Assembly (NCBI GenBank): GCA_973895155.1
Contig: OZ316893.1
Coordinates: forward strand, 18,478,757-18,542,756
Reading direction: 5' to 3'
Length of the DNA stretch: 64,000 nt
Source: Marsupella aquatica
Lineage: Eukaryota; Plantae; Marchantiophyta
Shown piece by piece: positions 5,381-63,795 of this stretch (positions within the stretch are counted from its first letter, which is position 1; each line of letters opens with the position of its first letter). The notes beneath the pieces are model-generated. The model saw nothing but the letters and a program-made list of their open reading frames with translations, had not been told where the DNA came from and did no database searches. The position numbers and the translations under genes are program-made.

Positions 5381-5429
5381 ATTGGTATCAGAGCGGTGTG
5401 AAACCCTATAGGCTATGGGATCCTATTGC

Positions 5430-14008: not shown

Positions 14009-14101
14009 CTCGCCAACTAATCAAAACGACACGGCCTACGACTTTGTAAAGTTTCAGATCTGTTTTCCTTATGAATACACACCTTCTATAGACGTCACAC
14101 C

Positions 14102-22068: not shown

Positions 22069-23103
22069 CTTTGCACATGGCGTAGATCGATGGATCTTTT
22101 ATTGTCATTGTCATCTCATCGATCCTACTTTGCACAATCCTGTCAGGGATCGCATATCTTGGCTTTCAAGCTGAACTATATGTATGCACAATGTCCCTAA
22201 TGTGGATGTACTGTTTGGAGATTGCAGAGAGATCAGTTTTGATCAGAAGGATCACGGGGACATTAGGCAACAATTATCTTGTGCTTTCATGTGACTGGGT
22301 ATGCATGCTCTAAAAACTTTCCTTAAGCCTTCAAAGATCTCTTAAGATTGAGCAATCATTTTGAGAATTAAAGACTTCCATGACACTGCTCAAAATAAAA
22401 TGATAGACTTATTATTATGAGCATATAGAGTAGAAGACTTTTTTTAATTTATGACAAATCCATGATTTGATCCATGATTTGGATGAACTTCTTAATTTTG
22501 ATTGCATGGACCCTTGTTTTGAATTTATTGTATAGATGTGGCATTGAGCACAAAGCAATTACACTTGTTTTCATCTTCAGTATTTCCTATATTGCATATT
22601 CAAGCTATGAGGTTCATCCTTGTAGGTGCCTAGCCTTGTTTGTGCGTTTGTCACAATTGCGTCCTTTTTGGAATTGGAGCACATCCCTAGAGGACTGGAC
22701 CCTATTGGAGCAACTGAAAAAGGGAAAGAGTTTAGGAGCCCTTCGACTGTCAGGTGAACACATTCATCTAGTAATCTACTCGGATCAGGTAGGGTGTATG
22801 TACATGGCCCGTGGGAAACGTAGACCACCCCCTATGTTTGTTGGAATCAATGCCATTTGTTGCTCCATCTCCTCATGGAACTTCTTGACAAAGAACAAAG
22901 CCCACTTCCTAGGCCGGTATTTCTTGACCTGGATTACCTGGGCAGCGGATATCTTGAGCCCTGTGGCTCCATCATGTGGTAATGGTAATGGTAATGTATT
23001 ATAAGCTCCGGGACCATGAAAGTCAAAGGAGCTGCCACAAAAAGTAAAATACAATGCAATCAAAGAAAAGAGCAACCAAAAGAGATTGCTCAGAAGAGGA
23101 CAA

Positions 23104-26100
23104 CTATGTCCTCAAAGAAACTATGGACCTAGAGAGCCCTGAAAGATTTTCCAAACCTATTCTCCTTTCCCTATCCACCGCAAAGATATATCTTCCAAGT
23201 TGCTGAGGGGGCAGACCAAACAATGCATACAAATCTTTCACCAAGATTTGAGATGCCATCCTAACCCCCTCATAAAACTTGCAAGCAATGAATACATGAT
23301 ATTCATTCTCTATACTAGAGCTATCACATAGTTGACAAACCCTCTTTTTCCTGTCAATATCCTTCCATCTCCCTTGTTCTACTTCAAGGTGGTGTGAGCT
23401 TAGTCTATACTGAGCAATAAGTTGTCTAAGTTGTACTGAGATAGTGCTAGATAAGTATTCTTGTTCTCGATATTTCTTCATGGGGTTCACATCTCTCATG
23501 TAGTATTACTGCCGTGGGCTAGGTTCATGCCAAAGTTTGTGCAAAGCCTTTTGCTCAAGTTTTGCTCTTAGCTTGGTTGGGTGTGTTGGCCATTCATGTT
23601 CAGGAAAATCCCAAGCATGGGCCCACCTGCACACATCTGCATACCACCCTTTAGCTGAAGATGAGCGCAAGGCAGGAAAAGGAAATCTGTTTTCCTCCAA
23701 CTCTCTTACACGCATGATGTATTTGAGTGTGTGGAAGAGTGCCTCCACCTCCAAAGGAAACAAGCCTGCCTCTGCAAGTGTAAGTGTATATGGGGTTTGT
23801 GACTTGATCCCAAGCTCCATCTCAAGAAATAGCTTTTGCAGCCCCTCAATCTGTTGCCACCCAGATTTAGACACACCTGCTCCCCAAATTGGTGCTCCAT
23901 AAAGAATGACTGGTTTCACCAAAGCTCCAAAGAGATGTTTCCTTAACCTCCAAGTGTGTAGACCAGCTCTTTTGCATTTGTTCATGAATGCATAAAAAGC
24001 TCTGTACCCATTGGCAGCCCTAGATTTTACACATGAGGCCCAACTCAAGTTTTGAGAGAACTCCACCCCAAGGTATTTGTAGGTCCTCACAAATTCCACC
24101 AGATTCCCTTGGAAGTAGAGCTCTGGATTTTGTCGTGTGCCAATGCCCAAACACTTGGTCTTCTTGAGGTTGACTACCATCCCTGTTGCTTGACAAAACT
24201 CCTCCAAGGCATTGAGATGTCTTTGCAAAGCTTCTTGAGCATGAGCAAGTAGGACCACATCATCTGCAAATATAAGAAGTTGGAGGACAAACCTACCCAA
24301 TTGAGTGCCAACTCCACCATGCTCTTCCAAAATGTTGTGTAGCTGATCAATGAAGATGCCAAATAGAGTTGGTGAGAGAGGACAACCTTGGATCACCCCA
24401 AGAGTGCTCCAGATTTCTTCAGAGGTTTCCTTTGAAAGTTTGATGCGCACTTCTTGGTACAATTTAGAAACAGCCAACCTGAGATCTTCAGGCACTTCCA
24501 ACTCCACCATCCTATCCCAAAGCTTGGATCGGGAAACTTTGTCAAAGGCCTTGGAGAAATCCACAAACAAGCAAAATAATGGTTTATGTGGAGATTTGGC
24601 CTTTTCACACAACACCCTCAAGCAGAGAATGTGATCCATAGTGCTGAATTCTCTCCTAAAACCTGCTTGTGAAGGTGCCCTTTTCATCTCACTCTCCAAC
24701 CAAGAGCTTAATCTGGCTTCAAGTAGTCCTCCCAAAACTTTAGCAAAAGTATTGCCTACCATGATGGTTCTGTAGTTGTGCACATCGTCCTTGTTGCCTG
24801 CCTTGAAGATAGGCACCACTCTTCTGGTCATCCAAGCTTTAGGTAAACCTAAAGCCATTGCTTGATTCAGCTCATGCACCAAGTTTGTTAGTAAAGAGGG
24901 TCCTCCCCACAAAAGAAGCTCCAAGTTCAGGCCCAACAGATCCCATGTTGCATGTGGGAAAGATGCACCTTCACCTCCCTCTCTGTAAACTGAATGGTGT
25001 CCCCAAGGGGCAAAGGCATGCCACTAGCATCTGGAAAGAAATACAAGGATGTGACATAGGTTACCAGGTCCTGGTGATCCAAGGGGGGAGTAGTCTTGCC
25101 TGATTGCATTCTCTCCCAAAAACGTTTTGGATGTTTGATGAACTCCTCACATAGTGATTGTTGATGACTCTTCAAGAAGCACCTCTTCTTGTGTTTGATG
25201 AAGTTCTTGTACATAGTGAATGCCAAAAGTCTCTTTTCCCCTGAATGTGATCTTGCTTGCATCCTTGCTCTAGCACAATCCTCGTCAAACCAAGCCTTCA
25301 TGTTTTGCTTTCTAGGGGGTTTGGTGGAGAAAGTAGAGGCTGCTGCTTGTACTATGACTTCTGAGAGCTCAATCTGATCATCCAGGGTATGGAGAAGATG
25401 TTCAAAGTTGACTTTGAAGATGACTTCTCTATCAGGGTCTAGAAACAGAGGTTTGGGTACTGGCTTTCTATGCACTTTGTTTGGGATTGTGGTCAGGTCA
25501 AGATGGAACAACAAAGGCAAGTGTGAAGACTCTGGTTGTTGATCAAGTATTTGAAAGTCAACCACTCTAGTGGCAGAGGTAGGTGTGGCAAGAAGGTAAT
25601 CAATGGTACTACATCCTTGTTTAGATCTAAAAGTGTAACCAGATGATTGGGGAAATCTCTCAAGCCCATTCAATATTCTTAGATTACAAGAAGCTCCCAA
25701 ATGCAAAAAGCGACGTGTCATGTCATTTGTTCTGGTGTCAAGAGCCTCTCTCACCCAAGGTAGCTCTTCACTACATGATGACCAAGGTAAAGTTCCTAAG
25801 TCCTCACTTTCAGTAAATTGTTCATTAGATACCCTGGCATTAAAGTCCCCCACTATCCATGTCTCCCCTAGTGGTGATATATCATGAATGACTTGGATTA
25901 ACCTATGAAATGGATAATGTGCATCAGCAATTCCCATCTTATAGACATTCATATTAAGGGGAGCAAAGTAGGTGACAATCAGAAATGATGGAGTACCTCT
26001 GGTATGAAGTCTCACCACCATGAACTGCTTGCTGGGATCTTCATGCTCAATAGAGGTGATGTGTTGAAGTTGATTCTTGGTGTAGACAGCAATGCCTCCA

Positions 26101-26297
26101 AACCCTCTTCCCCGTGTGGTCTTCTTCTCATTGAAGATGGATTGTATGCAAGTAAAGCCTTTAATGCTAGGTAGAGCATTTCCCTCATATTCCCAAGTCT
26201 CCGTGAAAAGCAAGATGTCAAAATTCTCAAACAAAGGTTCCCCTCCAATTGCTGTTTCTATGGAAAGTCCTGAAACATTCCATGCCATGACTCTCAA
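23104..26297 (-). pseudogene. LINE ORF2 (AP endonuclease, reverse transcriptase, C-terminal Cys/His motif)
   Basis: WNVSGL, TETW, GDFNAR, TIDY, SSHLP, NYRTI, QAGFR, VDFSKAFD, GVIQGCPLSP, FADD, YKYLG. Disabled by a ~10-nt deletion near 24941 and a TAA at 23506. Confidence 0.93.
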
Positions 26298-26309
26298 GGT
26301 CCCGATCCA

Positions 26310-27080
26310 TCATTTAGAAACAACTCTCTTCTTATTGGTAACAACAGTTTGTCCATTGTGCAAGTAGGCTACCAATCCTTGGTCTTTGGCTACCCTCACC
26401 TTCTCAAGCTCAATTTTCCTTGCTTGGACTTGTGTGGGAGTCAGATCATCATCCAACCAAATCCTTAGCCCTTTAAGCATGCTCCTGTTAGCCATCACTC
26501 TAGCTTTCTCGGATTCAGCTGCAAACTTCACCAAGATTGGACGTGGAAGGTCCCCCTTCTTTTGCCCAATCCTATATGCTTGCAAAATGATAGGGTCATG
26601 CACTTTCATCTGAGATTGGAATTATGAAATTGCTACCTTCTTGGTGTCTTCCTTCTCCTCCTCAACAAGGCCTGATATTTTGCAGTTGCTGACTCTTGCA
26701 TGCTGGTTCTTGTGTTCTTCCTCTAGTGCTCTCCTCTCCTCCTCCTTGGCTTGGACAAATTCCATATGTGATTGTTTTGCAGCCTGTGCAAAGGTTTTGA
26801 GCTTTTCCTCAATCTCCCCTACAGCCTCATGTATCACTGATTTCTCTGGGCACATACTCTTCTCCATGTCTCCAAAACACGATGCAAGCAATGAGAGTTG
26901 CTTACCATTCTCCTGAGTTTGAGATCGAAGATCACTAATCAACCTCTTTTGCTTGACATTCTCATTCTTTAGCTCCGTCACCTCCTTGCTGAGTGTGGTA
27001 ATCTCAATTGCGGAGTTTTCAACCACAACTAAGATTTTCTCAAGCAAAGCCTTGAGATGGGCAATCTCCTTCGTTGCCAT
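26310..27080 (-). pseudogene. LINE ORF1 (coiled coil + RIG..PRPILVKF..IWLDDDLT domain)
   Basis: Typical ORF1 motifs. One premature TAA at 26622, where the 63-kb copy reads TTC. Confidence 0.88.
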
Positions 27081-27146
27081 CACAAAGCTGAAACTGTTGT
27101 TAGAATGTACTCTTAGACGACAAATAGAAATTGGGAGCAGTAGAGG

Positions 27147-28190
27147 ATGTCAGTTGCAGCTCTACCTTTGCCAGTGATACACTCTCGCTGTTTGCAACAC
27201 TCTGGCAAAGTCTGAGCTCAAACCGCAGCCGATTGCCCTTCCAACTCGAAGTGAAATTTCGCCCCAAGCTCAGAATCCCAAAACTAGACACGTAGCAGAT
27301 CGTGCATGCTAAAGTGCATACCAAACGATGTCGGTTGCAGCTCTAACTTTGCCAGTGATACATTCTCGCTGTTTCCAATGCTCTGGCAAAGTCTGAGCTT
27401 AAACCGCAGCCAATTTCCCTTCCAACTCGAAGTGAAATTTCGCCCCAAGCTTAGAATTGCGAAACTGGAGACGTAACAGATCGTGCATGCTAAAGTGCAT
27501 ACCAAACGATGTCGGTTGCAGCTCTAACTTTGCCAGTGATACATTCTCGCTGTTTCCAATGCTCTGGCAAAGTCTGAGGTTAAACCGCAGCCGATTTCCC
27601 TTCCAACTCGAAGTGAAATTTCGCCCCAAGCTCAGAATTGCGAAACTGGAGACGTAACAGATCGTGCATGCTAAAGTGCATATCAAACGATGTCGGTTGT
27701 AGCTCTAACTTTGCCAGTGATACATTCTTGCTGTTTCCAATGCTCTGGCAAAATCTGAGCTCAAACCGCAGCCGATTGCCCTTCCAACTCGAAATGAAAT
27801 TTTGCCCTGAGCTCAGAATCGCGAAACTAGAGACGTAGCAGATCGCGCATGCTAAAGTGCATACCAAACGATGTCGGTTGCAGCTCTAACTTTGCCAGTG
27901 ATACATTCTTGCTGTTTCCAATGCTCTAGCAAAATCTGAGCTTAAACCGCAGCCGATTGCCCTTCCAACTCGAAGTGAAATTTTTCCCCAAGCTCAGAAT
28001 CGCGAAACTGGAGACGTAGCAGATCGCGCATGCTAAAGTGCATACCAAACGATGTCGGTTGCAGCTCTAACTTTGCCAGTGATACATTCTTGCTGTTTTC
28101 AATGCTCTGGAAAAATCTGAGCTTAAACCGCAGCCGATTGCCCTTCCAACTCGAAGTGAAATTTTGCCCCGAGCTCTTAATCGCGAAACT
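27147..28190 (-). repeat. 181-bp tandem monomers (~5.8 copies) forming the LINE 5' UTR
   Basis: Equivalent positions at 27324, 27505, 27686, 27867 and 28048; CpG-containing. Confidence 0.92.
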
Positions 28191-45809: not shown

Positions 45810-47647
45810 CACTTCCGCGAATTTGCGACTTTGATTGCTCGGGCTGTGAGACAACTCTAGGGATGTTCTTGGGCTCATTAGGAGCGCCTTGAGGTCTACT
45901 ATCTTCCTATTTGAAAATAGCTCCAAATCTTGACACTGCTTGTGAGCTATTTACTATTTTTGTGAAGCCACCATTGTAGATTTTTAGGGATTTGAGTTTC
46001 TTGGGAGATTTATGGTTAAGTTGAGCTAGATTCATGCTCCCAAGCTTCTAGAAACTTTGATTATAGATGTTGTGAAAAGTGTTGATCCTTCACAAAATAG
46101 CTAGAATTTGTTTTTGCTCTTGGTCCGATTTAAAACATTAGGGATTTGACAAATTAGGGCTTGGAGAAATTAGAGCTTGCACCAGTATACACATCTTTGG
46201 AGATTGCTTTGGAACTGGAAAGGAGGACCTCATGGGGGACCAAGTGGGTTTGGAGGATGTGATGTCCTTGTTGAAAGGGCTTACAAAGGAGATGGCTGAC
46301 CAAAAAGCCCAATTGGCTACTCTTGTGAGAGTAGTGGAGGAGCAAAGGAAAGAGATCCATGAGTTGATGATTGAGTTGGGTGGCTCTATCAAGGTCACTA
46401 GGGTGATTGCTGAACATACAGTTGGGATGAGTGAGAGGTTAAAAGAGAATAACACCGTGGACTTGATGGAGGAGAAGCTAAAGACATATGCTGAAGCAGC
46501 CAACCAATCACACATGGAGTTTATCCAAACCAAGGAAGAGGAGAGAAGATTACTGGAGGAGGAAAAGAAGAACCAACATGCAAGAGTGAATAATTGCAAG
46601 ACATCAGGGGTGGTGGAGGTGGAAAAGGAGAACACCAAAGAGGTAGTCACTTCCTTCTTCCAATCTCACTTGAAAGTGCATGAACCTACCATTTTGCAGG
46701 CATACAGGATTGGACAAAAGAAGGGTGATCTTCCACGTCCAATCTTGGTCAAGTTTGGCATGGAATCTGAGAAAGTTAGAGTGATGGTTAATAGGAGCAT
46801 GCTCAAGGGTCAAAGGATTTGGTTGGATGATGATCTGACTCCCACCCAAGTGCAAGCAAGGAAGATTGAGCTTGACAAGGTGAGGGCAGCCAAGGATCAA
46901 GGATTGGTAGCATATCTGCACAATGGGCAAACTTTTGTGACCCAAAGGAAGAGAGATGCATGACCTTGAGAGTCATGGCATAGAATATTTCAGGACTTTC
47001 CATAGAATCAACAATAGGAGGAGAACCCTTGTTTGAGAATGCTGACATCCTGCTCTTCTTGGAGACTTGGCAATATGAGGAGAATGATCTACCTAGCATC
47101 AAGGATTTTACTTGCATTGGATCTCTCTTCAATAAAAAGAACACCACAAGGGGAAGAGGGTTCGGAGGTATTGCAGTCTACACCAAGAATCATCTTCAAC
47201 ACATGACATCTATTGAGCATGAAGATCCAAGCAAACAATTCATGGTGGTGAGACTACATACTAGAGGTATTCCATCATTTCTAATTGCCACCTATTTTGC
47301 CCCACTTAGCATGAATGTGTACAAGATGGGAACTGCTAATGCACAATATCTATTCCACAACTTGATTCAAGTTATACATGATGTATCAGTACTAGGAGAG
47401 ACATGGATAGTGGGAGACTTTAATGCTAGAGTGTCTCACCAACAATTCATTGATAGTGGAGATTTGGGGGCATTGCCTTGGATATCATGTAATGAAGACT
47501 CATCTTGGTTGAGAAAAGCTATAGATACTAGGGTAAATGATATGACACCCCATTTTCTACAATTAGGAGCTTCTTGTAATCTGAGAATATTGAATGGGCT
47601 TGAAAGATTTCCTCATTCATCAGGTTATACATTTAGATCAAGTCAAG
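45810..47647 (+). mobile_element. 5' half of a related RTEX LINE (5' UTR, ORF1, endonuclease)
   Basis: ORF1 at 46232-46963. ORF2 starts at ATG 46960 and has a TAG in place of the W codon. The 5' motif CACTTCCGCGAATTTGCGA resembles the family A 5' end. Confidence 0.88.
46232..46963 (+). CDS. LINE ORF1 protein (243 aa, open)
   Basis: Coiled coil + AYRIGQKKGDLPRPILVKF..IWLDDDLT. Confidence 0.85.
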   Translation: MGDQVGLEDVMSLLKGLTKEMADQKAQLATLVRVVEEQRKEIHELMIELGGSIKVTRVIAEHTVGMSERLKENNTVDLMEEKLKTYAEAANQSHMEFIQTKEEERRLLEEEKKNQHARVNNCKTSGVVEVEKENTKEVVTSFFQSHLKVHEPTILQAYRIGQKKGDLPRPILVKFGMESEKVRVMVNRSMLKGQRIWLDDDLTPTQVQARKIELDKVRAAKDQGLVAYLHNGQTFVTQRKRDA

Positions 47648-49662
47648 CATGTAGCAGCCCATTGAACGTTGGGTGCAAGAGCGATTGGGGCGCGTGGACT
47701 TCCTTGATGCAAATTTTCTGGGCCCCGATCAAGCTCATGCTGAGCATCGAGTTCCCTCTTCCAATTATATTTGGCTCAGGGGTTTAGGATTCAAGAGAAA
47801 CTACAAGCGGGCGAGGGCGGGAGTCGATGATGACTGTCAATCACAGAGCTAAAGGTGTTCCAATCGCAAGCACTTAGGTTATTTTGGAGTGCATCCCTAC
47901 GGCGATTAGGTTTCTAGGCAGCGAGATTTAAGCTAGCGCCCAGCGCTGCTAAAGCTTGATGCTTTCCATCTCCTTTTTTCAGTACTGAATGTTTTGTTAG
48001 GATTTGGTAATCTGGGTAATATGTTTTCGCCCATTTTGATAGGAAATGCTTTTTGGATCGACCCATTTTCCTCTCCATAGCATTATACATGGAAGGGAGG
48101 GATTTATAGTTTTAAGCTAGCGTTGGGCGCTACTTATACTCATTGCTTTCCGTCGCCCATGTAATCTCGGTGATATATTTTTGCCCATTTTTGAAGTAAA
48201 TAAATTTTGGATCGGCTCAATCTCCAATGTCTGGTTTTTCTCTCGATGGCGTTAAACATGGATTTCGGGATTTTGAGGTTTAAGCTAGAAACAAGATCCA
48301 GATATTGTTGTTGTATGACCCTGCCTCTATTGATTTGAATTGACTCATTTTCAGCCGCTCATTGTCTTCTCGATTGAGGTTACGTATATTTTTGTTGACT
48401 TTTTCCTTCTTCTATGAAACCCTACAACCTTTCCATTCGCTTCATTGATACCAGCGCTGGGCGCTGGTAATCATCGCAAATTTGGGTCGGACTACCCGAT
48501 GGGATATTTCCTCCAAAATGAGACGGTTTTAATGAAAATGACTCAAATGGGCTTTAATTTTGATTGTTTGTAATCCTTTTTTTGGTCCGATGTTTTCAGT
48601 TTTTACCTCCAATTTTCCTGGTAACAGTAACTGTTTCCTGTTACTGTTCCTGGTTCCTGTCTTTTCTAAATACCCCTTTGTAGATGAGCCACAATCATCG
48701 TCGATTCCAGTTGTAGATCGAACTGTATCTGGAACGAAACCATGCTCTCGGGTCCTGATGTAAGCCGCAGATGGACTTTGCTCGTCACCGCTTTGGGGAA
48801 ACACGCTAGGAACGGTGGTGTTATGGAAATCTACAGGCCAAGTTCTTTCTGTTTCCTCATTTCATCCTCCCGAGTTGGACTATGGGGAGGAGGTGGCCAG
48901 TGAACAGTAAACCTTTCCGCAAACCTCCTTGGCGGAGAATCCCTCATCCACGGGATCAGCGTTTCACCAGGACTAATCGCTTTGTCTTGTGGAAGGTTGA
49001 AGCGGTTGCGGAAGGCACTTGTTTTCGACCATTCGGGCTGTTCAGTCATGGGAACCGAACTCTCTTCCGAAATGATTGTAGTGTGTCTTTGAAAGTAGGC
49101 CGCAGAGATTCTCCTTGGATTATCCATGGCAGGTCAGCGAAAGAGCTCGAACACAATCGAAAGTGGGAAAGCACTATAAGACAATAATGGCGGATCACCC
49201 AGAGAGCAGATGCAATATTGGGCATTCAAGACTTAATTGCTCAAACATTATAGGGATTAGGGTGTAACCTCATGGCGACCTGAACCGCTCGCTCCATCCG
49301 AAAACGGCCGTTGCATCCTCAAACTCCCGTTATGGTCTAAAACGGCCGTCTCAACATCAAACGGGCATTTTCACCTCACATGACCATTGTGACAGACCAG
49401 ACAAAAGATTAACGGGAAAATTCGACTGACATCATCCAGAAAGTACGAGAGTACCAATGTACCAGCGTCATGACCGTCATACAATTATAGTAGCGCCAGG
49501 CGCTACTATAACAGAAAGTGTACTTTGAGTGAACACACCATGGTTGCAACTGACATATAATATCTTTTATTGTACAACATTTCTTGTATACATTTGGGTA
49601 GCGCCCAGCGCTAGCATAGTTCCACTATAAAATACACCCAAAATACACAACAGAGATCCAAG

Positions 49663-52600
49663 TTAATCTGAGCACTCCGATTCACTTGATTTGGACTTGT
49701 CGGTAGATTCTTCCTTGATGTCTAAAAATTTGCTCTTGGCCATATCATCCACAAATCGGTTCCGCATAAATTTTTTATTAGACCCCCTCCTCAATCTCAA
49801 GCCTTTATTCTCCCAGTGCACTATCGACTCTTCTAGCAACATTTTCAGCATAGGAAGGTAAGACAAATGGTTTCTCGGGAGTTTCAATATATCGCCTAGC
49901 TACTTTCCGTCTGAGTTGGAAACGCCGGCAAAGATTCCAGTCTGACCTGAGGAGGAGAATATTGGATTTTATGTCAACGGCCACAATATTTGCCAAAAAG
50001 GAAATAAAAAATGTGACATCAAAGAGAGAAGAAGGGAATCGACCGTAATAAAAAACCGAGTTAGCTTATGAGCTTACTCGATAGTTTCTTACTCATAAGA
50101 GTCTCCGCTGTCACTCCCTCCATTAGATTCTGGATCTTCTCCGGTTAGAGACACTTTGGGAATGTTGGGATCCTCCTCTTCTTCTTCCCCCTGTTCTGCT
50201 TCATTCTCATCTTTGGGGTCAAAATTTAATATTGATTTAAGTTTGTCTCTCTTTCTTTTTGCAAGCACAGGCTTCGGAGGGGCTTTGGACTCAAATACTT
50301 TGGGAGTTAGAGGGTCAAGAAATATTTTTGAAGCGGTTTCAACGAACTCCTTCCTATTCTCGAGCCCAATTACAAATCGACCACAATTATCACCTACCAC
50401 AAATGTACTCCCAGAACCTACAGCCCAATCCAGAACAATATCTCTGGGACACGTGATTGGTTCCAGAATAGACTGCATAAACCCTGGATGTAGTCTGGCA
50501 TTCCCGGAAAATTCAAGCTCGGGAGTTGTATCCACCTTCGCAAATGGAAGTCCGATCAGATTTGTGATAGAGGGATCCTCTGTTCTTGAAAGAGGTTTGA
50601 ACTTAGGATCCTTTGGGACTTTCACCTTGGATGATACCCGACAAAATATATCCAAACGTAAAGTGAATACCTGAAAAGGGAACATCAACAAGTAAGGACC
50701 TAAGAATTGTAATAGCGTCGGGCGCTAGCAAAGAATGAAGAGCATGATTAGTAGTGTACCTAGGAAAAGATTAAAATTTCTAATCGAGCACCAGATAATT
50801 TGAGCAGTGCTTGGCGCTAGCAAAACTTTGAAATTGTGATCAATAGATTTACCTGTAAATCAGACTTGGCCTTGTACATGGGGAACCCCATGACAACATT
50901 ATGTGTACACAAACACTGGAATTTCTTAGACTCTTGACATGCTGAGATGACCTGTGAAATCTGATCATACTCCCCCGTATGGAGTATCGCAATAATTCTG
51001 TCATTCAACAAAAAGGGATCCATTGCCCGGAAAAAACATCGGGCTAGCATACAGTCGGGAACGTTCCAAATTGGGGACCTTCCTATCAAGCAAAGTTGGT
51101 TTTAGCCCAGTTGGCAAATAAATAAAACCAATGTCAATACCAAAAGGCCTTTCTTTCCCACCCCTCACCACCCCTTCCAATCGGCATCCAGATTTGATTG
51201 AGTCCTTCCCCCACTTTTCGGCATCATTAACCCATTATGGCTTCTCCTCCTTGTTAAACACACTGTCCACTAATTCACTGACACTGGTCTCAACAAAACA
51301 ATGACGAGATGCCTTGGATTTAAAATTCCCAACATCACGTTGGAGCCCGGTGGCCGCTAGAGAATCCCTTTTTGATTGCCCAGCATCGCGAGTCCTCCTG
51401 CTTTTCTTCTTCATACTCGTTGCATCGACTTGTACAACTGATTTTCCAGAATTAACTGGTGTAAGTGGATCTGACACAGCGCCAGTATTTGCTTTTGAAG
51501 CTTCTGGGGTAACCTTCGTATCATCAGTGGCGTCTGCATCCGACTTCTTTTGACCTATTCACACAATGCAGAGAATGTGGGATTAGTGTCAGAAAGGAAA
51601 AACGGATTAAGGTTGAAGTATGGGAATAGTAGCGCCAGGCGCTAGCAAAGAACTAAACTGGGTTTGAATGAAAACGTATGTTTCTTCCTGGATAGCATTG
51701 ATGCACTTGGCAGTGCTGTGTCTACTTTCACTTTCCCTCTTGGCTTGCGGCTCCTGTCTACATGAACAACTACTGTCTCGCAGATTGTTTGTAACTCAGT
51801 AGATGATTTGTCGACGTCGCTCAAGAGCCCTTGCTTCATCTCAAAAACTATGTTGGGTAGAATCTGCAACTTGGCTAGTTTGAGAAACCAATCCTTCTCC
51901 ACTTCGTCAAATGGTGAATCCCACTTGTCTGTGTCAAGGTACCACGGGCAGTGAATTCTTTCCCACTCGGACATTTTCCATGGTGGTAGTTTACCCTCGG
52001 CAGGATACATTGAATGCAAGTCAGCAACATGATCTCCCTCCTTTGCAACAATCCACTTGTGAAATGCAGCTGGATACGCCCAAAGCGCATCCGGGGAATG
52101 TACTTCCATCCATATGTAAAAATGATACAAATACCTCTTGGCCCTCTTCTGATTTTTCTCTGTATATACCTCTTTATTAGGGTATTTTGATGGCCACATG
52201 GTGTTGAAGAACTTTGCCTTCACAAGATCCCCATACCTTCTGAACTCACTTGAAATAATTTCAATCAGACCCTCTATTGAGTCACACCCTGAATGGGCAA
52301 GCCTATCAACTTGGAGTGTTTCAATGGCTGCAAAAATTGCAGATTGCAACATCCCAATTGCGATTCCCTTGACGGTATTCCAGGTTTGCCATCTGTGACA
52401 CCACTAGCTGCTTCACTGGATCATCATTCACATTGGCAGGGTGGAAGAATTGTTTTCTCAACACAGGAGTACAGTGAGCAACGAGCAAAGTGCATCTCAA
52501 TTTTGGATCGAGAGCAGAAACTACTGTGAATAGTCTAGCACAGTCCATAGTACAAACAACCGAATTGGGTTTTTTCTCTCGCTTGTTCTTCTCTGTCAAT

Positions 52601-53716
52601 ACGTACATCTCTGCACAAGTACCTAGAAAATCTTCAAACTCAGGACTAAGAAGAGGAGTATTTTGGATGTTTTTGTAGACCAGTCTTTGGTGGCCTCTTT
52701 CAACATGAGTGACTGCCGCTTTGCGACCTCATCAGCCAACCAAGGATTGCCTTGACTTTCTGCCAATGCCATGTCCATCTTGAACTGGTTAGTGTAAGCT
52801 TTGAAATTTTTTTTCGCACAAAATATAAACAAGAGCTTCCAAGAGGCATTTTCCGTGTGTACCAAGAATGTTTTTGAGTCTTCTATTTGATATACTCAAA
52901 CTTTGCATAATTGGCGCTGTCAATTATTGACTTATAGTACTCTAGATCGTGAGAGAGAATCCTTTGGATTCTGTCTACGTCAAGGATCCACGACGGTTCA
53001 ACAATGGCCTGCCCTAACCTGCAATAGGCCATGTTTGAAATTAGTAGCGCCAGGCGCTAGCATAAAAACAAACACTCTCTTTAGTATTTATTTAACAACA
53101 ACGGGTTGCGGAAATCTTTAATTACAAGTTTGGGCTGAATTACTTACTGGTTGACTGTGTGCATAGCCGCCTCAATCTAAATTTGCGAAGCTTTATCACC
53201 CTTGAAAATGGTGCAGAGAACTTTGGGATGATACTTGACATTGTCTGGATTTTCCTTTGTGACCATAGTCCATGAGTAAAGTCGGTGATTCCCATCAAAG
53301 ACTAAGAACATTTTGTCTTTCAAGATCGTACAAGTTGGATGCCTTGCATTCTAACTCAAATTTCTTGTTCTCAGCAACCCAAATAGCATCCCAAGTCTCC
53401 CTGATCAGGACAGTGCATATTTTCTCCACACCATCGGAATCGGTCGGTTGCACAAAAAATTGCATTCCAATCCTTGGATTGTAGCCACTACTTTGGAATG
53501 AGTCTTTCAATTTCTCATTGACGCACTCTCCTTCTGAAGCGTCCGCACTACCTCCATGTGGATCAACCGACAAAGCGGAATCCTGGGCGGTTCCTTCTCG
53601 TTTCCCCGAAAATCTTTTCCAAATGACATTATGTGTCGCGAGATGACTTCATCCATCCCTAATCCAACCTCGTTGCCCTCTCCCAGCGCATAATCGGTCA
53701 TGCTATCCGTGTCCAT
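49663..53716 (-). pseudogene. Spliced ParB/Srx-like + beta-class N6A/N4C DNA-methyltransferase-like gene
   Basis: VFDGNHRL at 53296-53279 (DGNHRL), preceded by RIPLCRL..VVR..LKDSF..GY. IDIGFIYLPTG (motif IV position) at 51138-51106. HPGFMQSILEPITCPRDIVLDWAVGSGST..GRFVIGLE (motifs X, I, II). GT-AG introns at 53147-53019 and 50852-50671. Several frameshifts and stops. Confidence 0.7.
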
Positions 53717-54798
53717 TCGGACCCTTCTGGACTTCTAGAGTGGTAGTGTTGCGTTCAAGGAAGTGATTGCTCCGCTCGACCTTGTAACTCGACGCGAGTA
53801 AAATGCCCAGAGAACGAAGATTGTGTAGACTTGCAATGACCGTGATCTCCCTCTGGAACTGTGCTATACCCTCTTGGAGAGCTTGGGGCGCTTGAAGGTT
53901 GCATTGTGGAGCATGTCAATACGTGAAGGTCTCTGTACGGCACAAAGCCAGTCTCTACCCTCACGCTCCAAAAAAATTACCATACACAAAGAACTACATA
54001 AAACCTTTAAAACTTTTCCATCATAGTGCGGTTGACATCATGTGACGGAGAACGACGAGGATTGAAAGAATCTCACTGACCAATCCAAACAAAGACAGAT
54101 GGCAGGGATTGTTTGAAATGAGTAGAATTAAAGTCTATTTTCAAGTCATCTGTGGATGCAGCGATCAACGGGAGTGTATCGTTAAACAATCCAACGGAAA
54201 ACAACACAAAGTAAGGAATTTGTTCATACATGTTACCGTTAGATGTAACCATTGGGCAAACCAAAGTCATCTCCATCAATACTAGCGCCCGACGCTAGTA
54301 TCCCAAAACTATTAAAAATACTCTCATACATGACAATGACACGGAGGAGATTATGTCAGCGCCGGGCGCTAGCTATGTATACCCCTTGTATTTTCCCAAG
54401 AAGTAACGATTCCAAAACAAAATGAAACTTTATTGATTTTTCAGCAATTCCATCAAATTCAATAAAATATTTCGCTTTGACTTGACAGTCCGCTAATGAT
54501 AGCGCCTGGCGCTAGCACGTTCAGTCTGGTTTCTAAGTTGAAATCCGAGTACTTCTTTATGGTAGCGTCGGGCGCTAATAATTATCTGATCGCGTTTTTT
54601 ACACGTTACCGGTAAGTAGTGTCGTTGGCAAAATGACAAACTACATTTATGTGTCTGCATCTAACGACTAGTACCCATTTTGTCGTTTACAAACAATAAT
54701 CTTCTGAGGTTTGTAATGAGTTTACTTAACTTAAGTCGAGTAATGTTCTCCTATTTTCTCAGTTCCTTTGTTTGTCAAATTAAGATCATTCTCCCGCA

Positions 54799-57700
54799 AT
54801 GTCTAATTCAGTCGTGCTTCTTCATCCTGATATTGGGGAGATTGTATGCATCCCTGTAGGTTCATCCGACACGTACAAACAGGTTAGTGAGAACTATCTT
54901 TGTGGAAGATTTGACGTTGCCATCAACGACATCCATTCCATCAAACCTGACCATGCATCTGGAGAGGAGACAGATCATGCACTGTTTGATATCGATGATG
55001 GAGTCAGATTTTGGCACCTCAACGTTGGAAAGAGATACATTATCAATCTTCGACAACATTCCGTTCTGAATGAAATACATCCGGTTCCATTCATTGACCT
55101 TTCCAAGAGTGATGAGGAGGAGGTAGCCGTAGATTTGTAGACATCGGCCAATCCAGGGCCTTCTATCAAGATAGAAGGTCACTCTCCTTCCGAGCCAAAC
55201 ATTTTGGGGGGTGTTGTGTATCGTCAAAGCGCGATGGATGCCATTCTCAAATCAATTGGCCATAGTGAATTGTCGCGGTTCATCCAAACAAGTGATTTTA
55301 GGCATGAGCAGGTGAATTGTCTACCAAGTAAATATAATGGAAATGTTGTGCTTGAATTGCCTCCCACAGAAGGTCTGCTATCAAAAGGTTCGAGGCTTCG
55401 TGACATGGATTGGCCTAAAGACTGCTACTTCTGGACACGGATATTTCCAACTTCTGCGAATGTCCAACCTAAAAAGTTTTGGGAATTTGGTAAAGTGACG
55501 TGTACCGGTGCACTCGAATGTCAAAATCAGAAGTGTGATTATCTGTTGCGGAAGAAAAGAAGAAATTCAAAAGCTTGGGATGGGACACCCAAATTTGCGG
55601 GGCCACATACCGTGGGAAAGATTATTGAGGAGGGTGGGGTAGTTTGTCACTACTGCCAACAATTGCCCTTTTGTATTGAAGCTTGTCCAACAATGCTTTT
55701 TTATATGTACCCGCAATTACTTCTCGGCGCGGATACATGTAAACATATGTCGCGTCTTGCTGTGCATGTCGGAACTCATGCGCATCCCAATCGTAAAGTT
55801 TTTTCTTGTGGTGCGGAAAAGATTGCTCATGAGTTCATAAAGAAGCAACATGAAGCTACACCGTGTGCCACACCATCGGGTATGAAGAATGCCATAACTG
55901 GATCTTTAAGGAAGGCTCTTTGTGTGTCCAACAATGACATCGGAGAATCAGAGGAAAGAGAAATTTGGGAGTCGTTAATGGTTGTTCCGACCCCTCAAAA
56001 GTTTGCATCTCTTTTTTGGAGTGTTCGGCAAGACCAAAAAGGTAAAGGTGAGTTAGAGTTTCTTGTGGAAATGCAGAAATGCATAAACTTTCCCTTTCTA
56101 CAACGTTACATGCTCCCAGGTCAAGGCTGTAAGGAGGAGAGGCCGCATATTTTCAAAATGATGGTAAAAGGGCACGGATCTGGGGTTGATTTGTTGCGCC
56201 AAATGCAACCTGGAGGTCGACTAGAAGGCGCGTGGGTTAGTTTTGATGTGATGAGGAGAATGACCAAGGATTGGATAACTTTTAGCACTCACGTTTATGA
56301 TCACAATTACCGTGCTCTTTGCACAATCTTCACATGTGAGTTGAAAGCTGAAGATTCTGAGTCGTTAGAAAAAGCCTGGAAATTGATGATTGAGGTTTGC
56401 CATGAAAATGGGTTAGACAACGTAGTAATCCATGGACAATGCTCAAGCTGGATGGAATGCTATTCGGAACGTGTTTTTTGGTGGACATCCTAACCCAGAA
56501 AAGGAGCGATTGGATGCGTTTCACTTCTATCAATCGTTTCATCATCATTCAATTGAAGGAGTATTGGAAGAAAAACGAGAAGAGCACTGGAAGATGTGGG
56601 ACTCTTTAAGGAACGCGTCAACATTTCTTGGAGCCTACAAAATTTCCAGGGAAATTGACGTGTGGTGGAGATCAGGGAATTGTGTTCCAAGAAAGCTTCG
56701 GATGGTCCAAGGTTGGCTTGTGTGGTGGGTGGTCCGATGGCGTCAATGGGGAAATTTCATTCGTTTGGTGAGTTTCAACATCCATAAACAAGTAAACACT
56801 CAAAATCAACATTTTAAAAGAAGGAATCAAACAAAGTCATACTAGCGCTTGGCGCTATCATTATTTCCAATGACTTTTGTGTCCTAGTTCCACTCCAATA
56901 TTTGCCCGATTTTTTATACTAGCGCTCGGCGCTAGTTTTTATTAACCACTTGTTACTCGTATTTGTCCATATTCTAGGGTGAATGGTGGTAGCGCTAGGC
57001 GCTGGCATTGATTAATCCCGAAAACCTTACAAAATGATTTGGTTCAAACGTTTCTTTATTGAATGCAGTGACTAAGTCATATTTCCTAAACTGTGCTCCA
57101 AATGTTTTCTGCAGAACAAAAGCGTAGAGGAAAGCGCTATGATTCCTAAGTGTACTACTTCAGAGGCGGCACATTCCATAATGAAGGCTTGACAAACTAA
57201 GAAAAAGGCTGGTCTATTTGAAGCATGTGAGATGGATCAAAATAGGGCTCTTTCACAAGTTGTTGCGTATACGGCATATAAGAGAGGTCTTAACCGAGGA
57301 ACCGGACCTACAATTTGGGAATTGGCATTCCGTTTGGCAGACCAGGCAGGTTCTTCAAAACTTTTCCAAGATGCTTCCAATATGCTTCTTTCCGGTGCGG
57401 CTGAATTTGACCTCGAAAGGAGTGGCCCTCTCAATGGGGATGTTACCACAAAGTCTATGAAGAGGAAAGGTCAAGCCTCTGGGAACATCTCGGCACAAGA
57501 CTCCCATCGGCATGACACTATTCTTGTAACATCACCAAATACTCGAGGCATGAAAAGGAAAAACTTAAACAAGACTGAATTCTCCCCCATTGCATTGGGT
57601 CCTGTTCACCATGACATTGGCGTTGTGGACCTGTCAGAAAGTGAAATTGAAGAAGGCATTCATTGGAGTACTCCGCCCTGGAGGAGGTCAACAAGGTTGT

Positions 57701-58632
57701 CTGCAGCCCCGCAAAGTGCACCTCCCAACCTCCAAAAGGTTGTCCATGACTCAACTGTGTTGGAGACAGATGTGCGACCAGGGGCGTGGCACCTACAAAG
57801 AGTGACGAGACATGGTGCAGGGCCTCAGTGTAATGGATCTCTTGGTGGAAAATCGGATCAAGATGACTGTCGCAATCGTCTGAAAAAGGTTGGTTACCCA
57901 TCAACGGATGGTGTAGTTGGCATTGTTGTCAAAGAATATCGCGTGTTTAGGGGAGAACCACACCCTGAGATGATTTGGTTTTGTCCCAACAGTGCATGCT
58001 ATAAGAGCCAGCCCCGTCGTAATGTGGTGAATCTTCCCCCATTTCCTCATAGCCTGCCCGTTTTGAAAGGAACTAATCTTTCCGAAGCTGAGGTCCAATT
58101 CCTGACTCAGCAAGGGATTGCTATCAATCCAGAGGCCGGACGTCAGGCTGCTCCATCTCCTTTTGACTTGCGAATCAATGTGAACCTTTTCTTGGAGAAA
58201 ATCAATCTCCTTGAGCCAAATATCCGCCTTTGGAGTAGGAATGGTAAAAATACAATCCCACGTTCAAATCTTTCGCAAGGGCACAACAAAAGAATTGAAT
58301 CCGCAAACACGGAGTCGATGACCCTCGTTCAACAATTTGATGTTTCTGTCGGGAACTCTTGGGGCAAACAATTTCAGATCCAAACCCAAGAGAGACTTCG
58401 CACGACAAACACTTATTGGGTACAGATTTGCATTTTCCCATGTTGTTCTTGTGAGGACTTCTATCGTCGCCATTCTCATGGCAGGCCCTTCATGCCGTGC
58501 AAGCATCTCTATTGGGTGTATACCAACTTCCTAAAACTAGATGTGGTGGATTCAACTTTAGCTAGTCAGCCAATTCTTACTGTAGGTGAGGTGAGGCTCA
58601 TTCTAGCTAGGCAGAATTCTCTGGACTTCTAG
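54799..58632 (+). pseudogene. Mutator-like transposase with GCM-like Zn domain and C-terminal SWIM finger
   Basis: CTGALEC..C...CHYC..C...GTHAHP; VSFDV..HVYD..MDNAQAGWNAI..AFHFYQS; TTSEAAHS; CSCEDF..CKHLYWV. Intron 56768-57114 joins in frame. Stops at 55138 and ~57190, frameshift at ~56432. Confidence 0.78.
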
Positions 58633-59145
58633 ACTAGACATTTAGTAACGTTCAACGGCTCCAAACTGATTTGTCGCATTGGAACTTTTCACATCTTTTC
58701 AATGATACCTAATCAGATACTCATTTTCAGTACACATTTTGTTATAACATATGGCTAGCGCCGGGCGCTAGCTTTAGTTTGTCCTGTTCTGAGTGAATCT
58801 TGTTTGATTATGGTCCGAATGCTTTCCAGTACTTATCTTTGCGAACGGAATTTCCATTTGTGATTTTTCCTATATTTGAGTTCTTCTCGTGGGATATAAA
58901 TCTACCCCTTCCAGGTCACACTTCATTGAAGTGTACTTAATTATTTATTTATGAACACCATTCAATCCATTTGGTCTCATCTCAAACCCCTTGGTTTTTT
59001 GTTAGCGCCTAGCACTATTACATAGTACCTTACCGATTCCGATGGTATTTTTAAGATTGGTATTTTTTGAGTGTGCCTCGCCTCAGTAGCCTGTGTATGG
59101 TGGGACCCACATATATGGTGGACAAGTAATATGGTTTACGCACAT

Positions 59146-62100
59146 ATGGTGGAGTTTTAATGAAGATTGTAGGTTGATTGAGTTACATTCATTCAGCGAG
59201 TGGAATCCGGTAGTTGAAACTATATTTAAGTTAGGGACTATCCGTTGCCATGGAACTTGAGGTTACCGGGCGTAGGTTTTTTTGTTGTTGTGGGACTGGA
59301 AGCTTGACAAGAGGAGGAAGAAAGGACAAGAGGAAGAGTGCAAGAAGAATGAGGACATGAAGGAAGCTTGCCGGAGACTGAAGTTGTGTTCAAAGTGCCT
59401 GGGGGAAACCATTGACGAGTTTGAAACCGAGACCTGATCTGTTGACCTTAACTGAATTTAGCATGGAGACCTGAGCTAGAGGATGAGCAACCAAAGAAAA
59501 CATTTTGTAACCCCGAACCAAAACTTCTTCTTTTTTAAATAAAAAGAAACAAATGATGAATTTGGACTATTTTGATGTGGTGGAATGATGAGTTGTTGTT
59601 GTGGTGGAAATGATGAGTTAAAGTTAGATGAAAGTTATGTACGAGCGTGATCATGAATACAACAAATTGTAATGGTAATGGTAATGGTAATGTATTATAA
59701 GCTCCGGGACCATGAAAGTCAAAGGAGCTGCCACAAAAAGTAAAGTACAATGCAATCAAAGAAAAGAGCAACCAAAAGAGATTGCTCAGAAGAGGACAAC
59801 TATGTCCTCAAAGAAACTATGGACCTAGAGAGCCCTATGGACCTAGAGAGCCCTGAAAGATTTTCCAAACCTATTCTCCTTTCCCTATCCACCGCAAAGA
59901 TATATCTTCCAAGTTGTTGAGGGGGCAGACCAAACAATGCATACAAATCTTTCACCAAGATTTGAGATGCCATCCTAACCCCCTCATAAAACTTGCAAGC
60001 AATGAATACATGATATTCATTCTCTATACTAGAGCTATCACATAGTTGACAAACTCTCTTTTTCCTGTCAATATCCTTCCATCTCCCTTGTTCTACTTCA
60101 AGGTGGTGTGAGCTTAGTCTATACTGAGCAATAAGTTGTCTAAGTTGTACTGAGATAGTGCTAGATAAGTATTCTTGTTCTCGATATTTCTTCATGGGGT
60201 TCACATCTCTCATGTAGTATTGCTGCCGTGGGCTAGGTTCATGCCAAAGTTTGTGCAAAGCCTTTTGCTCAAGTTTTGCTCTTAGCTTGGTTGGGTGTGT
60301 TGGCCATTCATGTTCAGGAAAATCCCAAGCATGGGCCCACCTGCACACATCTGCATACCACCCTTTAGCTGAAGATGAGCGCAAGGCATGAAAAGGAAAT
60401 CTGTTTTCCTCCAACTCTCTTACACGCATGATGTATTTGAGTGTGTGGAAGAGTGCCTCCACCTCCAAAGGAAACAAGCCTGCCTCTGCAAGTGTAAGTG
60501 CATATGGGGTTTGTGACTTGATCCCAAGCTCCATCTCAAGAAATAGCTTTTGCAGCCCCTCAATCTGTTGCCACCCAGATTTAGACACACCTGCTCCCCA
60601 AATTGGTGCTCCATAAAGAATGACTGGTTTCACCAAAGCTCCAAAGAGATGTTTCCTTAACCTCTAAGTGTGTAGACCAGCTCTTTTGCATTTGTTCATG
60701 AATGCATAAAAAGCTCTGTACCCATTGGCAGCCCTAGATTTTACACATGAGGCCCAACTCAAGTTTTGAGAGAACTCCACCCCAAGGTATTTGTAGGTCC
60801 TCACAAATTCCACCAGATTCCCTTGGAAGTAGAGCTCTGGATTTTGTCGTGTGCCAATGCCCAAACACTTGGTCTTCTTGAGGTTGACTACCATCCCTGT
60901 TGCTTGACAAAACTCCTCCAAGGCATTGAGATGTCTTTGCAAAGCTTCTTGAGCATGAGCAAGTAGGACCACATCATCTGCAAATATAAGAAGTTGGAGG
61001 ACAAACCTACCCAATTGAGTGCCAACTCCACCATGCTCCTCCAAAATGTTGTGTAGCTGATCAATGAAGATGCCAAAGAGAGTTGGTGAGAGAGGACAAC
61101 CTTGGATCACCCCAAGAGTGCTCCAGATTTCTTCAGAGGTTTCCTTTGAAAGTTTGATGCGCACTTCTTGGTACAATTTAGAAACAGCCAACCTGAGCTC
61201 TTCAGGCACTTCCAACTCCACCATCCTATCCCAAAGCTTGGATCGGGAAACTTTGTCAAAGGCCTTGGAGAAGTCCACAAACAAGCAAAATAATGGTTTA
61301 TGTGGAGATTTGGCCTTTTCACACAACACCCTCAAGCAGAGAATGTGATCCATAGTGCTGAATTCTCTCCTAAAACCTGCTTGTGAAGGTGCCCTTTTCA
61401 TCTCACTCTCCAACCAAGAGCTTAATCTGGCTTCAAGTAGTCCTCCCAAAACTTTAGCAAAAGTATTGCCTACCATGATGGTTCTGTAGTTGTGCACATC
61501 GTCCTTGTTGCCTGCCTTGAAGATAGGCACCACTCTTCTGGTCATCCAAGCTTTAGGTAAACCTAAAGCCATTGCTTGATTCAGCTCATGCACCAAGTTT
61601 GTTAGTAAAGAGGGTCCTCCCCACAAAAGAAGCTCCAAGTTCAGGCCCAACAGATCTTTAGCTTTCCCATGTTGCATGTGGGAAAGATGCACCTTCACCT
61701 CCCTCTCTGTAAACTGAATGGTGTCCCCAAGGGGCAAAGGCATGCCACTAGCATCTGGAAAGAAATGCAAGGATGTGACATAGGTTACCAGGTCCTGGTG
61801 ATCCAAGGGGGGAGTAGTCTTGCCTGATTGCATTCTCTCCCAAAAACGTTTTGGATGTTTGATGAACTCCTCACATAGTGATTGTTGATGACTCTTCAAG
61901 AAGCACCTCTTCTTGTGTTTGATGAAGTTCTTGTACATAGTGAATGCCAAAAGTCTCTTTTCCCCTGAATGTGATCTTGCTTGCATCCTTGCTCTAGCAC
62001 AATCCTCGTCAAACCAAGCCTTCATGTTTTGCTTTCTAGGGGGTTTGGTGGAGAAAGTAGAGGCTGCTGCTTGTGCTATGACTTCTGAGAGCTCAATCTG

Positions 62101-63795
62101 ATCATCCAGGGTATGGAGAAGATGTTCAAAGTTGGCTTTGAAGATGACTTCTCTATCAGGGTCTAGAAACAGAGGTTTGGGTACTGGCTTTCTATGCACT
62201 TTGTTTGGGATTGTGGTCAGGTCAAGATGGAACAACAAAGGCAAGTGTGAAGACTCTGGTTGTTGATCAAATATTTGAAAGTCAACCACTCTAGTGGCAG
62301 AGGTAGGTGAGGCAAGAAGGTAATCAATGGTACTACATCCTTGTTTAGATCTAAAAGTGTAACCAGATGATTGGGGAAATCTCTCAAGCCCATTCAATAT
62401 TCTTAGATTACAAGAAGCTCCCAAATGCAAAAAGTGACGTGTCATGTCATTTGTTCTGGTGTCAAGAGCCTCTCTCACCCAAGGTATCTCTTCACTACAT
62501 GATGACCAAGGTAAAGTTCCTAAGTCCTCACTTTCAGTAAATTGTTCATTAGATACCCTGGCATTAAAGTCCCCCACTATCCATGTCTCCCCTAGTGGTG
62601 ATATATCATGAATGACTTGGATTAACCTATGAAATGGATAATGTGCATCAGCAATTCCCATCTTATAGACATTCATATTAAGGGGAGCAAAGTAGGTGAC
62701 AATCAGAAATGATGGAGTACCTCTGGTATGAAGTCTCACCACCATGAACTGCTTGCTGGGATCTTCATGTTCAATAGAGGTGATGTGTTGAAGTTGATTC
62801 TTGGTGTAGACAGCAATGCCTCCAAACCCTCTTCCCCGTGTGGTCTTCTTCTCATTGAAGATGGATTGTATGCAAGTAAAGCCTTTAATGCTAGGTAGAG
62901 CATTTCCCTCATATTCCCAAGTCTCCGTGAAAAGCAAGATGTCAAAATTCTCAAACAAAGGTTCCCCTCCAATTGCTGTTTCTATGGAAAGTCCTGAAAC
63001 ATTCCATGTCATGACTCTCAAGGTCCCAATCCATCATTTAGAAACAACTCTCTTCTTATTGGTAACAACAGCTTGTCCATTGCGCAAGTAGGCTACCAAT
63101 CCTTGGTCTTTGGCTACCCTCACCTTCTCAAGCTCAATTTTCCTTGCTTGGACTTGTGTGGGAGTCAGATCATCATCCAACCAAATCCTTAGCCCTTTAA
63201 GCATGCTCCTGTTAGCCATCACTCTAGCTTTCTCGGATTCAGCTGCAAACTTCACCAAGATTGGACGTGGAAGGTCCCCCTTCTTTTGCCCAATCCTATA
63301 TGCTTGCAAAATGATAGGGTCATGCACTTTCATCTGAGATTGGAAGAATGAAATTGCTACCTTCTTGGTGTCTTCCTTCTCCTCCTCAACAAGGCCTGAT
63401 ATTTTGCAGTTGCTGACTCTTGCATGCTGGTTCTTGTGTTCTTCTTCTAGTGCTCTCCTCTCCTCCTCCTTGGCTTGGACAAATTCCATATGTGATTGTT
63501 TTGCAGCCTGTGCAAAGGTTTTGAGCTTCTCCTCAATCTCCCCTACAGCCTCATGTATCACTGATTTCTCTGGCACATACTCTTCTCCATGTCTCCAAAA
63601 CACGATGCAAATGAAAGAAAGCGATGGCTTAATATTTTAAATAAGAATGACTTAGTGTAATTTGGCTTTAGAAATGAAAACTGAATAGGGTTAAGAGGAA
63701 TTGAAACAACTTGTAAAACTAAGATGTTATGACCAAGTCCCTAAAAACATAGAAAGTTCATTTGCACACCGCTTTAAACTGGTCCCCGGACAAGA
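59146..63795 (+). mobile_element. 3' part of a family C 5' LTR (split by a LINE), followed by a PBS-like site
   Basis: Homologous to ~43970-44697. Ends CCCCGGACAAGA, then TGGCAACCATATTGGG at 63797, resembling a tRNA-Arg-type PBS (TGGCGACCA..). Confidence 0.7.
59669..63610 (-). mobile_element. RTEX family A, near full length (truncated in ORF1)
   Basis: ORF2 59800-63021 has a single TGG>TAG at 60664; partial ORF1 at 63034-63603; (TTACCA)n tail. Confidence 0.94.

Follow-up and report, generated by a model that had tools for sequence, protein, structure and literature searches.

The 64,000-nucleotide stretch of the liverwort Marsupella aquatica analysed here (contig OZ316893.1; hereafter the window) likely holds, judged from its sequence, one degenerate member of a repeated family of Mutator-like DNA transposons, with two divergent, intron-bearing genes: a transposase gene on the plus strand and, on the minus strand, an accessory gene that combines a ParB-like segment, a helical middle region and a methyltransferase-like domain (Table 1). 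Both genes are pseudogenes, and the window copy can encode neither protein. Copies of a 15-bp palindrome, TAGCGCCNGGCGCTA, are dispersed in and around the two genes, and we suggest, with a probability of about one half, that the accessory protein, likely non-catalytic, likely binds these palindromes as a dimer and shields the element in a VANC-like manner.

The palindrome array, absent from an earlier note made from the letters of this DNA, was found in the follow-up. Seven of its copies lie in four of the five introns, four in the spacer and seven in the two flanks, and the exons of the two genes, which make up 61% of the element, hold none of the 18, whose 21 mismatches are all transitions. 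With up to two mismatches allowed, the window contains 17 copies, 16 of them in the element, against a chance mean of 0.01 (0 of 100 shuffles). That every intron carries a copy was ruled out, the last intron of the accessory gene having none. A distant relative, the 1,059-bp locus L006 (protein 43% identical), keeps the same intron position, and in its intron 13 base pairs, one of them mismatched, form a 26-bp palindrome (0 of 5,000 shuffles) with TAGCG/CGCTA-type arms as in the element and a different centre. A palindrome scan of viral contigs returned four loci with one copy each, which we take as chance.

The motif also occurs in other settings. High-depth contig joints at 58776-54279, 58771-53031 and 50676-51631 bring two palindrome-like stretches to within a few dozen bases of each other, separated by other sequence, which suggests related subfamilies or non-autonomous elements sharing the motif. 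Two worn copies (17318 and 17340, within 17127-17354) lie beside a broken transposase remnant (~17600-18800) that we take to be pogo/Tc5-like, and a 58-bp, 81% match to the left arm of the element (48625-48681) is found near the same remnant; these palindromes are either the relic end of a member of the element family or part of an unrelated element that borrowed the motif.

The palindromes might instead be sites of the zinc-finger region of the transposase, used in end pairing or self-activation, with the accessory protein acting elsewhere, for example on chromatin proteins. The transposase gene does have a large Cys/His-rich N-terminal part, and the AtMu1 transposase is described as activating its cognate copies sequence-specifically (10.64898/2026.08.24.746577). 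We nevertheless consider this model unlikely given that the palindromes are dispersed through the introns of both genes and not clustered at the ends, that the sole distant example, in L006, sits within the accessory gene, and that a palindromic site is well matched to a symmetric dimer of the kind that ParB-type proteins form.

Table 1. The transposon copy, its genes and its palindromes (positions in the window).
Feature	Position	Strand	Size	Remarks
Element, approximate extent	47657..59143		~11.5 kb	left: similarity to a long interspersed nuclear element (LINE) ceases; right: other repeat family starts
Accessory pseudogene	49663..53716	-	~1,150 residues	4 introns; ParB/DGQHR-like segment, helical middle, beta-class methyltransferase-like domain
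ParB/Srx-superfamily-like segment with DGNHR	53150..53600	-		two frameshifts and one stop; weakly supported
Conserved middle region, predicted all-helical	51687..53018	-	~440 residues	
Beta-class amino-methyltransferase-like domain	50296..51150	-		spans the motif IV region, an intron and motifs X-I; YLPT at motif IV
Divergent spacer	53717..54798		1,082 bp	palindromes at 54283, 54357, 54500, 54563
Likely Mutator-like transposase pseudogene	54799..58632	+	~1,160 residues	1 intron (~56768-57114); Cys/His N-terminal part, D..D..(DxxH)..E core, C-terminal CxC-x-CxH
Palindrome TAGCGCCNGGCGCTA	within 47934..59017		15 bp	18 dispersed copies (<=3 mismatches)
Palindrome copies, first nine	47934, 48118, 48452, 49491, 49599, 50713, 50805, 51630, 53045			
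Palindrome copies, last nine	54283, 54357, 54500, 54563, 56843, 56920, 56990, 58756, 59003			
Possible third small open reading frame	48831..49130	-	~98 residues	left arm; family search without a match

The accessory gene runs from an ATG at 53716 through DGNHRL (~53292), IDIGFIYLPTG (~51138-51106) and DIVLDWAVGSGST (~50443) to its end, a stop, at 49663. Of its four introns, those at 53147-53019 and 50852-50671 have GT..AG borders, the second of the four has a non-canonical donor, and the fourth was placed by eye. With frames set by eye from homologs, it has suffered about eight frameshifts and three stops, compared with one frameshift and two stops in the transposase gene. The earlier note was thus right about the divergent, intron-containing genes, their orientation, the places of the quoted motifs, the shared spacer of ~1.1 kb and the pseudogene state of both genes, but the decay that it called similar is unequal.

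A homolog search over 1.84 billion representatives returned 57 matches; among the 20 that were looked up, those named to species come from the liverworts Calypogeia fissa (three) and Riccia sorocarpa (six). There are two full-length Riccia gene models (1,089 and 1,057 residues), the former colinear with the window gene. R. sorocarpa P0066 is colinear with the window read-through over residues 206-1099 (E 2e-34, identity 24%), and a short anchor in it lies immediately ahead of the ParB-like core (0 of 2,000 shuffles). That the ParB-like and methyltransferase-like exons belong to one transcript, as proposed earlier, is supported by a Riccia model, in which a single polypeptide extends from the ParB-flanking sequence to the methylase. 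Five Riccia members (P0039, P0046, P0051, P0055 and P0064) are named 'Trimethylguanosine synthase' in UniRef, which looks like automatic misannotation because the alignment puts them in the methylase-like accessory family. Among the best-supported differences between copies of the accessory gene, 18 of 33 are synonymous, where 33% is expected (P 0.009), suggesting that the accessory protein was being kept for some role.

The C-terminal exon matches Pfam N6_N4_Mtase at 31.9 bits (cut-off 26.7; E 1.6e-7), at profile positions 170-220 of 221 only, and also matches beta-class enzymes among PDB sequences. The fold is taken from a predicted model of the homolog P0023 (predicted local distance difference test (pLDDT) 74.4), with the window pieces in the alignment. 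This model matches CcrM (Foldseek E 3.3e-11; Z 16.8, root-mean-square deviation 3.0, 201 aligned), MboIIA, PvuII and the bdelloid N4CMT across the whole domain. The predicted structure and the profile and PDB matches support the beta-class amino-methyltransferase fold that the earlier note had read from the order IV-before-I, here motif IV, target recognition domain, X and I; fold and order are shared with CcrM, M.PvuII, bdelloid N4CMT, Marchantia DN4MT1 and METTL14/MTA9.

Unlike active beta-class enzymes, the accessory family lacks the catalytic motif IV, (D/N/S)PP(Y/F/W). The window has YLPT in its place, and none of the 14 members that reach the motif has an aromatic Y/F/W at the fourth place, S, T or N being found there. 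The Asp is retained in eight of the 14, all from Riccia, as D-(L/M/P)-P; Asp and aromatic are both absent from the window, L006, P0023 and three Calypogeia proteins, and in the window branch the D/N/S position is occupied by Y, F, C, A or R. Decay of the window copy, raised as a caveat in the earlier note, is ruled out as the source of YLPT by this family-wide degeneracy and by the contigs of four public runs (see below), in which no variant is listed at 51086-51131 (threshold 10 in 100; short contigs). Motif I takes the form DW(A/T)VG, not DPFxG, in a region that is nearly invariant among 23 sequences, as is the acidic residue after the next strand past the motif. Given that the first residue of motif IV is described as the proton acceptor and the aromatic as the base stacker in PMC7544214, which also reports eroded motifs in METTL14 and MTA9, we predict little or no methyl transfer, most firmly in the window branch, and regard DNA methyl transfer by the accessory family as doubtful.

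The self-marking role suggested by the earlier note is not sustained, motif IV being degenerate across the family, unlike the TSPPY of MpDN4MT1, described as a host sperm gene in the Marchantia preprint. That the accessory protein is an active N4-cytosine or N6-adenine methylase of unusual motif IV and marks the element that carries it, with the palindrome as its docking or target site, is improbable in view of the missing aromatic, the replaced D/N/S position of the window branch, the altered motif I and the differing palindrome centre in L006, although the whole methylase fold, the motif I region with its acidic residue and, in the Riccia members, D-(L/M/P)-P have been retained. At its centre the palindrome has CCNGG, which is similar to sequences recognised by some bacterial N4C methylases. 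Algal counterparts of the protein (see below) are predicted to be active. Retention of the gene with loss of its catalytic motif points, in our reading, to binding rather than marking.

Weak but convergent sequence matches suggest placing the segment around DGNHR in the ParB/Srx superfamily, as a remote core of the DndB type. A 54-residue piece (53180-53341) matches TIGR03187 DGQHR below threshold (E 0.0022), phrog_5732 (E 4e-4), whose bacterial matches are DGQHR/DndB proteins, and the ParB-like phrog_1033 (E 0.044). Its Atlas neighbours are DUF6551 (0.92) and ParB_N (0.91; ParB_N is 11% of that cluster), with low shared-feature counts. A Pfam scan gave no ParB match for the segment, which does not qualify as a canonical ParB (partition CTPase), and searches of the piece against PDB sequences, phages and plasmids gave nothing under E 0.5, the one phage match (E 3) being a DGQHR protein. 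The ParB signature of the earlier note is weakly supported, at the level of the superfamily and as the DGQHR/DndB type, not as canonical ParB. DndB-like proteins are described as binding ATP or GTP and repressing transcription (PMC12704722). The middle region aligns with P0001 over 443 columns (30%, E 1e-60); its model is poor (pLDDT 45.9), gave no Foldseek match under E 0.001 and a best Z of 7.1 to unrelated helices, and says nothing on the absence or the novelty of a fold.

Combining these data by analogy with known systems, we suggest that (i) the accessory protein would dimerise on the 15-bp palindromes by means of its ParB-like and helical parts, (ii) the ParB-like part may constitute a nucleotide-gated dimer or clamp, (iii) the methylase fold could provide a scaffold that contacts DNA or bases, as in METTL14 and MTA9, and (iv) the palindrome-bound protein would leave the element accessible for transcription and transposition, without methylating, in the manner of VANC. 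The anti-silencing part of the earlier proposal gains indirect support from the palindrome array. For the element the observed/expected CpG ratio (o/e) amounts to 0.68, with 0.83-0.95 for its left arm and spacer (0.95 for the spacer with motifs masked); the flanking LINEs have 0.05-0.10, and three other remnants of transposons 0.34-0.56. This lesser depletion in the element may be a weak and indirect sign of anti-silencing. In a bolder version, which is tentative and rather doubtful, seed-free land plants would host an anti-silencing system for transposons made of prokaryotic parts: the nucleotide-gated ParB-like dimer would load at parS-like palindromes placed in almost all introns and the spacer of the element and spread along it, the catalytically dead methylase fold would read or shield cytosines, and protein and palindrome would co-diverge between families, making the system a second, independent VANC-like code.

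The plus-strand gene is likely a Mutator-like transposase. Its read-through contains D482, D548, DAFH at 574 and the E of SEAAH at 675 in the Mutator order, and scores best of 302 sequences against an IS256/MULE profile of 13 sequences (8.0 bits, best shuffle 1.3), a weak match (E 4.6e-5 for one sequence) that covers only 42 columns around the second Asp. Pfam scans of four and then six broken pieces of the gene gave no MULE, GCM or SWIM match, and NCBIfam and PHROG gave none relevant to a transposase. Of the GCM/MULE/SWIM transposase in the earlier note, the Mutator-order motifs are thus upheld and Pfam support is missing. The large Cys/His-rich N-terminal part is presumably a GCM-like zinc finger, and we take the C-terminal motif to be SWIM-like. 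A homolog search among candidates of 789-2,250 residues yielded none in 1,539, and scanning a transposase piece against viral contigs gave nothing.

On the left, the resemblance to the flanking LINE family ends at ~47655-47665, and on the right a different repeat family starts at 59144, limits that give the element a length of ~11.5 kb; since the right flank does not continue the LINE that is cut on the left, one end of the element has probably been lost. Five public runs contain part of the stretch, and contigs from four of them, with three organism labels, were compared. In all four runs the contigs span each of the 30 bins of 46000-60500 at 80-100% likeness, including the run with the third label, and their depth over the element reaches 25 contigs at a single position, indicating repeated copies. 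Other copies lack the window frameshifts at 53516 (contigs of four of four runs), 51069/51070 (three of four) and 52659 (two of four), and an indel at 53805 in contigs of all four runs indicates that the spacer itself is multi-copy.

No terminal inverted repeat was found at the element ends, where 120 of 200 shuffles score equally well, and no target site duplication was found there. Several points weigh against a palindrome-binding, shielding accessory protein. Among the listed contigs of the four runs none bridges both genes in another copy, and their linkage in other copies is indirect for that reason. The ParB call depends on one 54-residue piece whose scores lie below threshold, the segment scores no higher than 500 shuffles against a profile built from 30 canonical ParB domains, and both full-length Riccia models skip the DGNHR core, so that we infer its place in the spliced protein. 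The middle region yielded no helix-turn-helix and no DNA-binding fold of another kind. The central cytosines of the palindrome are most often changed to T, which fits host methylation rather than protection, and the comparison of motifs across families rests on one distant locus, L006. Of the more than 3,000 differences, listed or hidden, the synonymous test drew on the 33 best supported, and the transposase differences show no synonymous excess (4 of 14). Finally, the CpG contrast is modest except against the LINEs and may have other causes. An incidental pairing, in which a passenger gene was captured or two repeats were nested and the palindromes serve neither, would suit the missing repeats, duplication and bridging contig and the worn palindromes beside the unrelated transposon remnant, but is very unlikely in view of the one palindrome throughout both genes, spacer and flanks, the multi-copy spacer, the full coverage under the third organism label, the synonymous excess in the accessory gene and the same opposite-strand layout described in Ectocarpus.

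The closest parallels come from algae. Sola1-1_Ec32 of Ectocarpus is described as carrying a 1,104-residue ParB and N4/N6 methyltransferase gene opposite its transposase, with the proposal that the accessory protein binds and modifies its own element and with parallels cited from green and red algae (PMC12477816). By this description only, it resembles the window gene in its ~1,100 residues, in joining ParB-like and N4/N6 methyltransferase (PF01555) domains in one protein and in lying on the strand opposite the transposase, and differs in belonging to a Sola rather than a Mutator-like element, in a brown alga, and in being a predicted active enzyme; the description mentions no dispersed palindrome array. 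In the red alga Bostrychia, Plavaka elements are reported to carry the accessory genes PAG2 and PAG3, with homologs on Mutator elements of Chondrus, and inverted-repeat arrays beside the ParB-domain gene are proposed as ParB sites (bioRxiv 10.1101/2025.02.11.637652). As here, PF01555 methylase and ParB-like domains are found on DNA transposons and the ParB score is equally weak (HHpred e-value 0.29 there), but as reported the domains lie in separate genes (methylase with SET; ParB with 2-oxoglutarate oxygenase), and a tandem array stands beside one gene instead of single copies in introns.

In Arabidopsis, the short motif that VANC21 is reported to bind lies in the introns of VANDAL21 and in its intergenic and terminal non-coding DNA (PMC5735166). 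The window element has the VANDAL layout, an extra gene on a Mutator-like element in the mudrB/VANC-type slot recognised by the earlier note, and likewise a family-specific motif enriched in non-coding DNA. By the same account the VANC motifs differ in being 8-9 bp, non-palindromic and tandem, their function is proven and ours is suggested, and no ParB or methylase fold is reported for VANC in its description. A ParB fold fused to PF01555 is described as common in phages (PMC12704722); the accessory protein shares the DG(N/Q)HR core with DGQHR/DndB proteins and, like phage ParB-N6N4 methylase fusions, would join a ParB-like part to PF01555; it differs in its ~440-residue helical insert and its introns. 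Given that both the architecture and the self-binding hypothesis are already in print for algae, the design is not new, and the locus is likely a land-plant, likely non-catalytic variant of the algal transposon ParB-methylase accessory type. A literature search, with most subscription journals and Repbase reports outside its scope, gave no land-plant case and no report of family-wide loss of motif IV; Iyer 2016, Kojima 2025 and Replitrons, as far as their accessible text goes, add no land-plant case.

The prokaryote-derived module of the earlier note is not borne out as a direct transfer from prokaryote to plant, and movement between eukaryotic transposons is as plausible. Scanned against metagenome and viral contigs, the middle-domain alignment gave zero loci; the methylase alignment gave one plant-like metagenome locus, four weak viral loci and one weak bacterial locus, and no close prokaryotic or viral relative of the accessory protein was found in these scans. 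In a tree of 16 rows, built without DN4MT1 and N4CMT, the ten family rows stand apart from six prokaryote-type rows (100/100); the tree is unrooted and names no donor, and P0023 and L006 are labelled plant by inference.

Other features surround this locus. The left arm contains an imperfect 154-184 bp duplication (47924-48225) with one palindrome per unit, and the small frame there is a possible third accessory gene. A young LINE family (22977-26887, 59673-63610 and 46142-47654, plus fragments) includes two ~3.9-kb copies that are 98.6% alike and many 3' fragments, and its CpG is extremely depleted (o/e 0.05-0.17). An intronless 615-codon frame on the minus strand (12176-14020; CpG o/e 0.91), which resembles a plant dynamin-related protein, is either a retrocopy or a single-exon host gene. 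A tandem array of ~181-bp units that are 88-94% alike lies at 27146-28190, and a pol remnant on the plus strand (5302-7752), which we assume to be Copia-like, is split by LINE pieces.

The accessory family comes with a putative binding site, the well-defined 15-bp palindrome, of which a relative has a diverged form, and lives in liverworts, which are amenable to genetics. If the protein acts as VANC does, plants would have a second anti-silencing system that is sequence-specific, and one that might serve as a tool to keep transgenes active.

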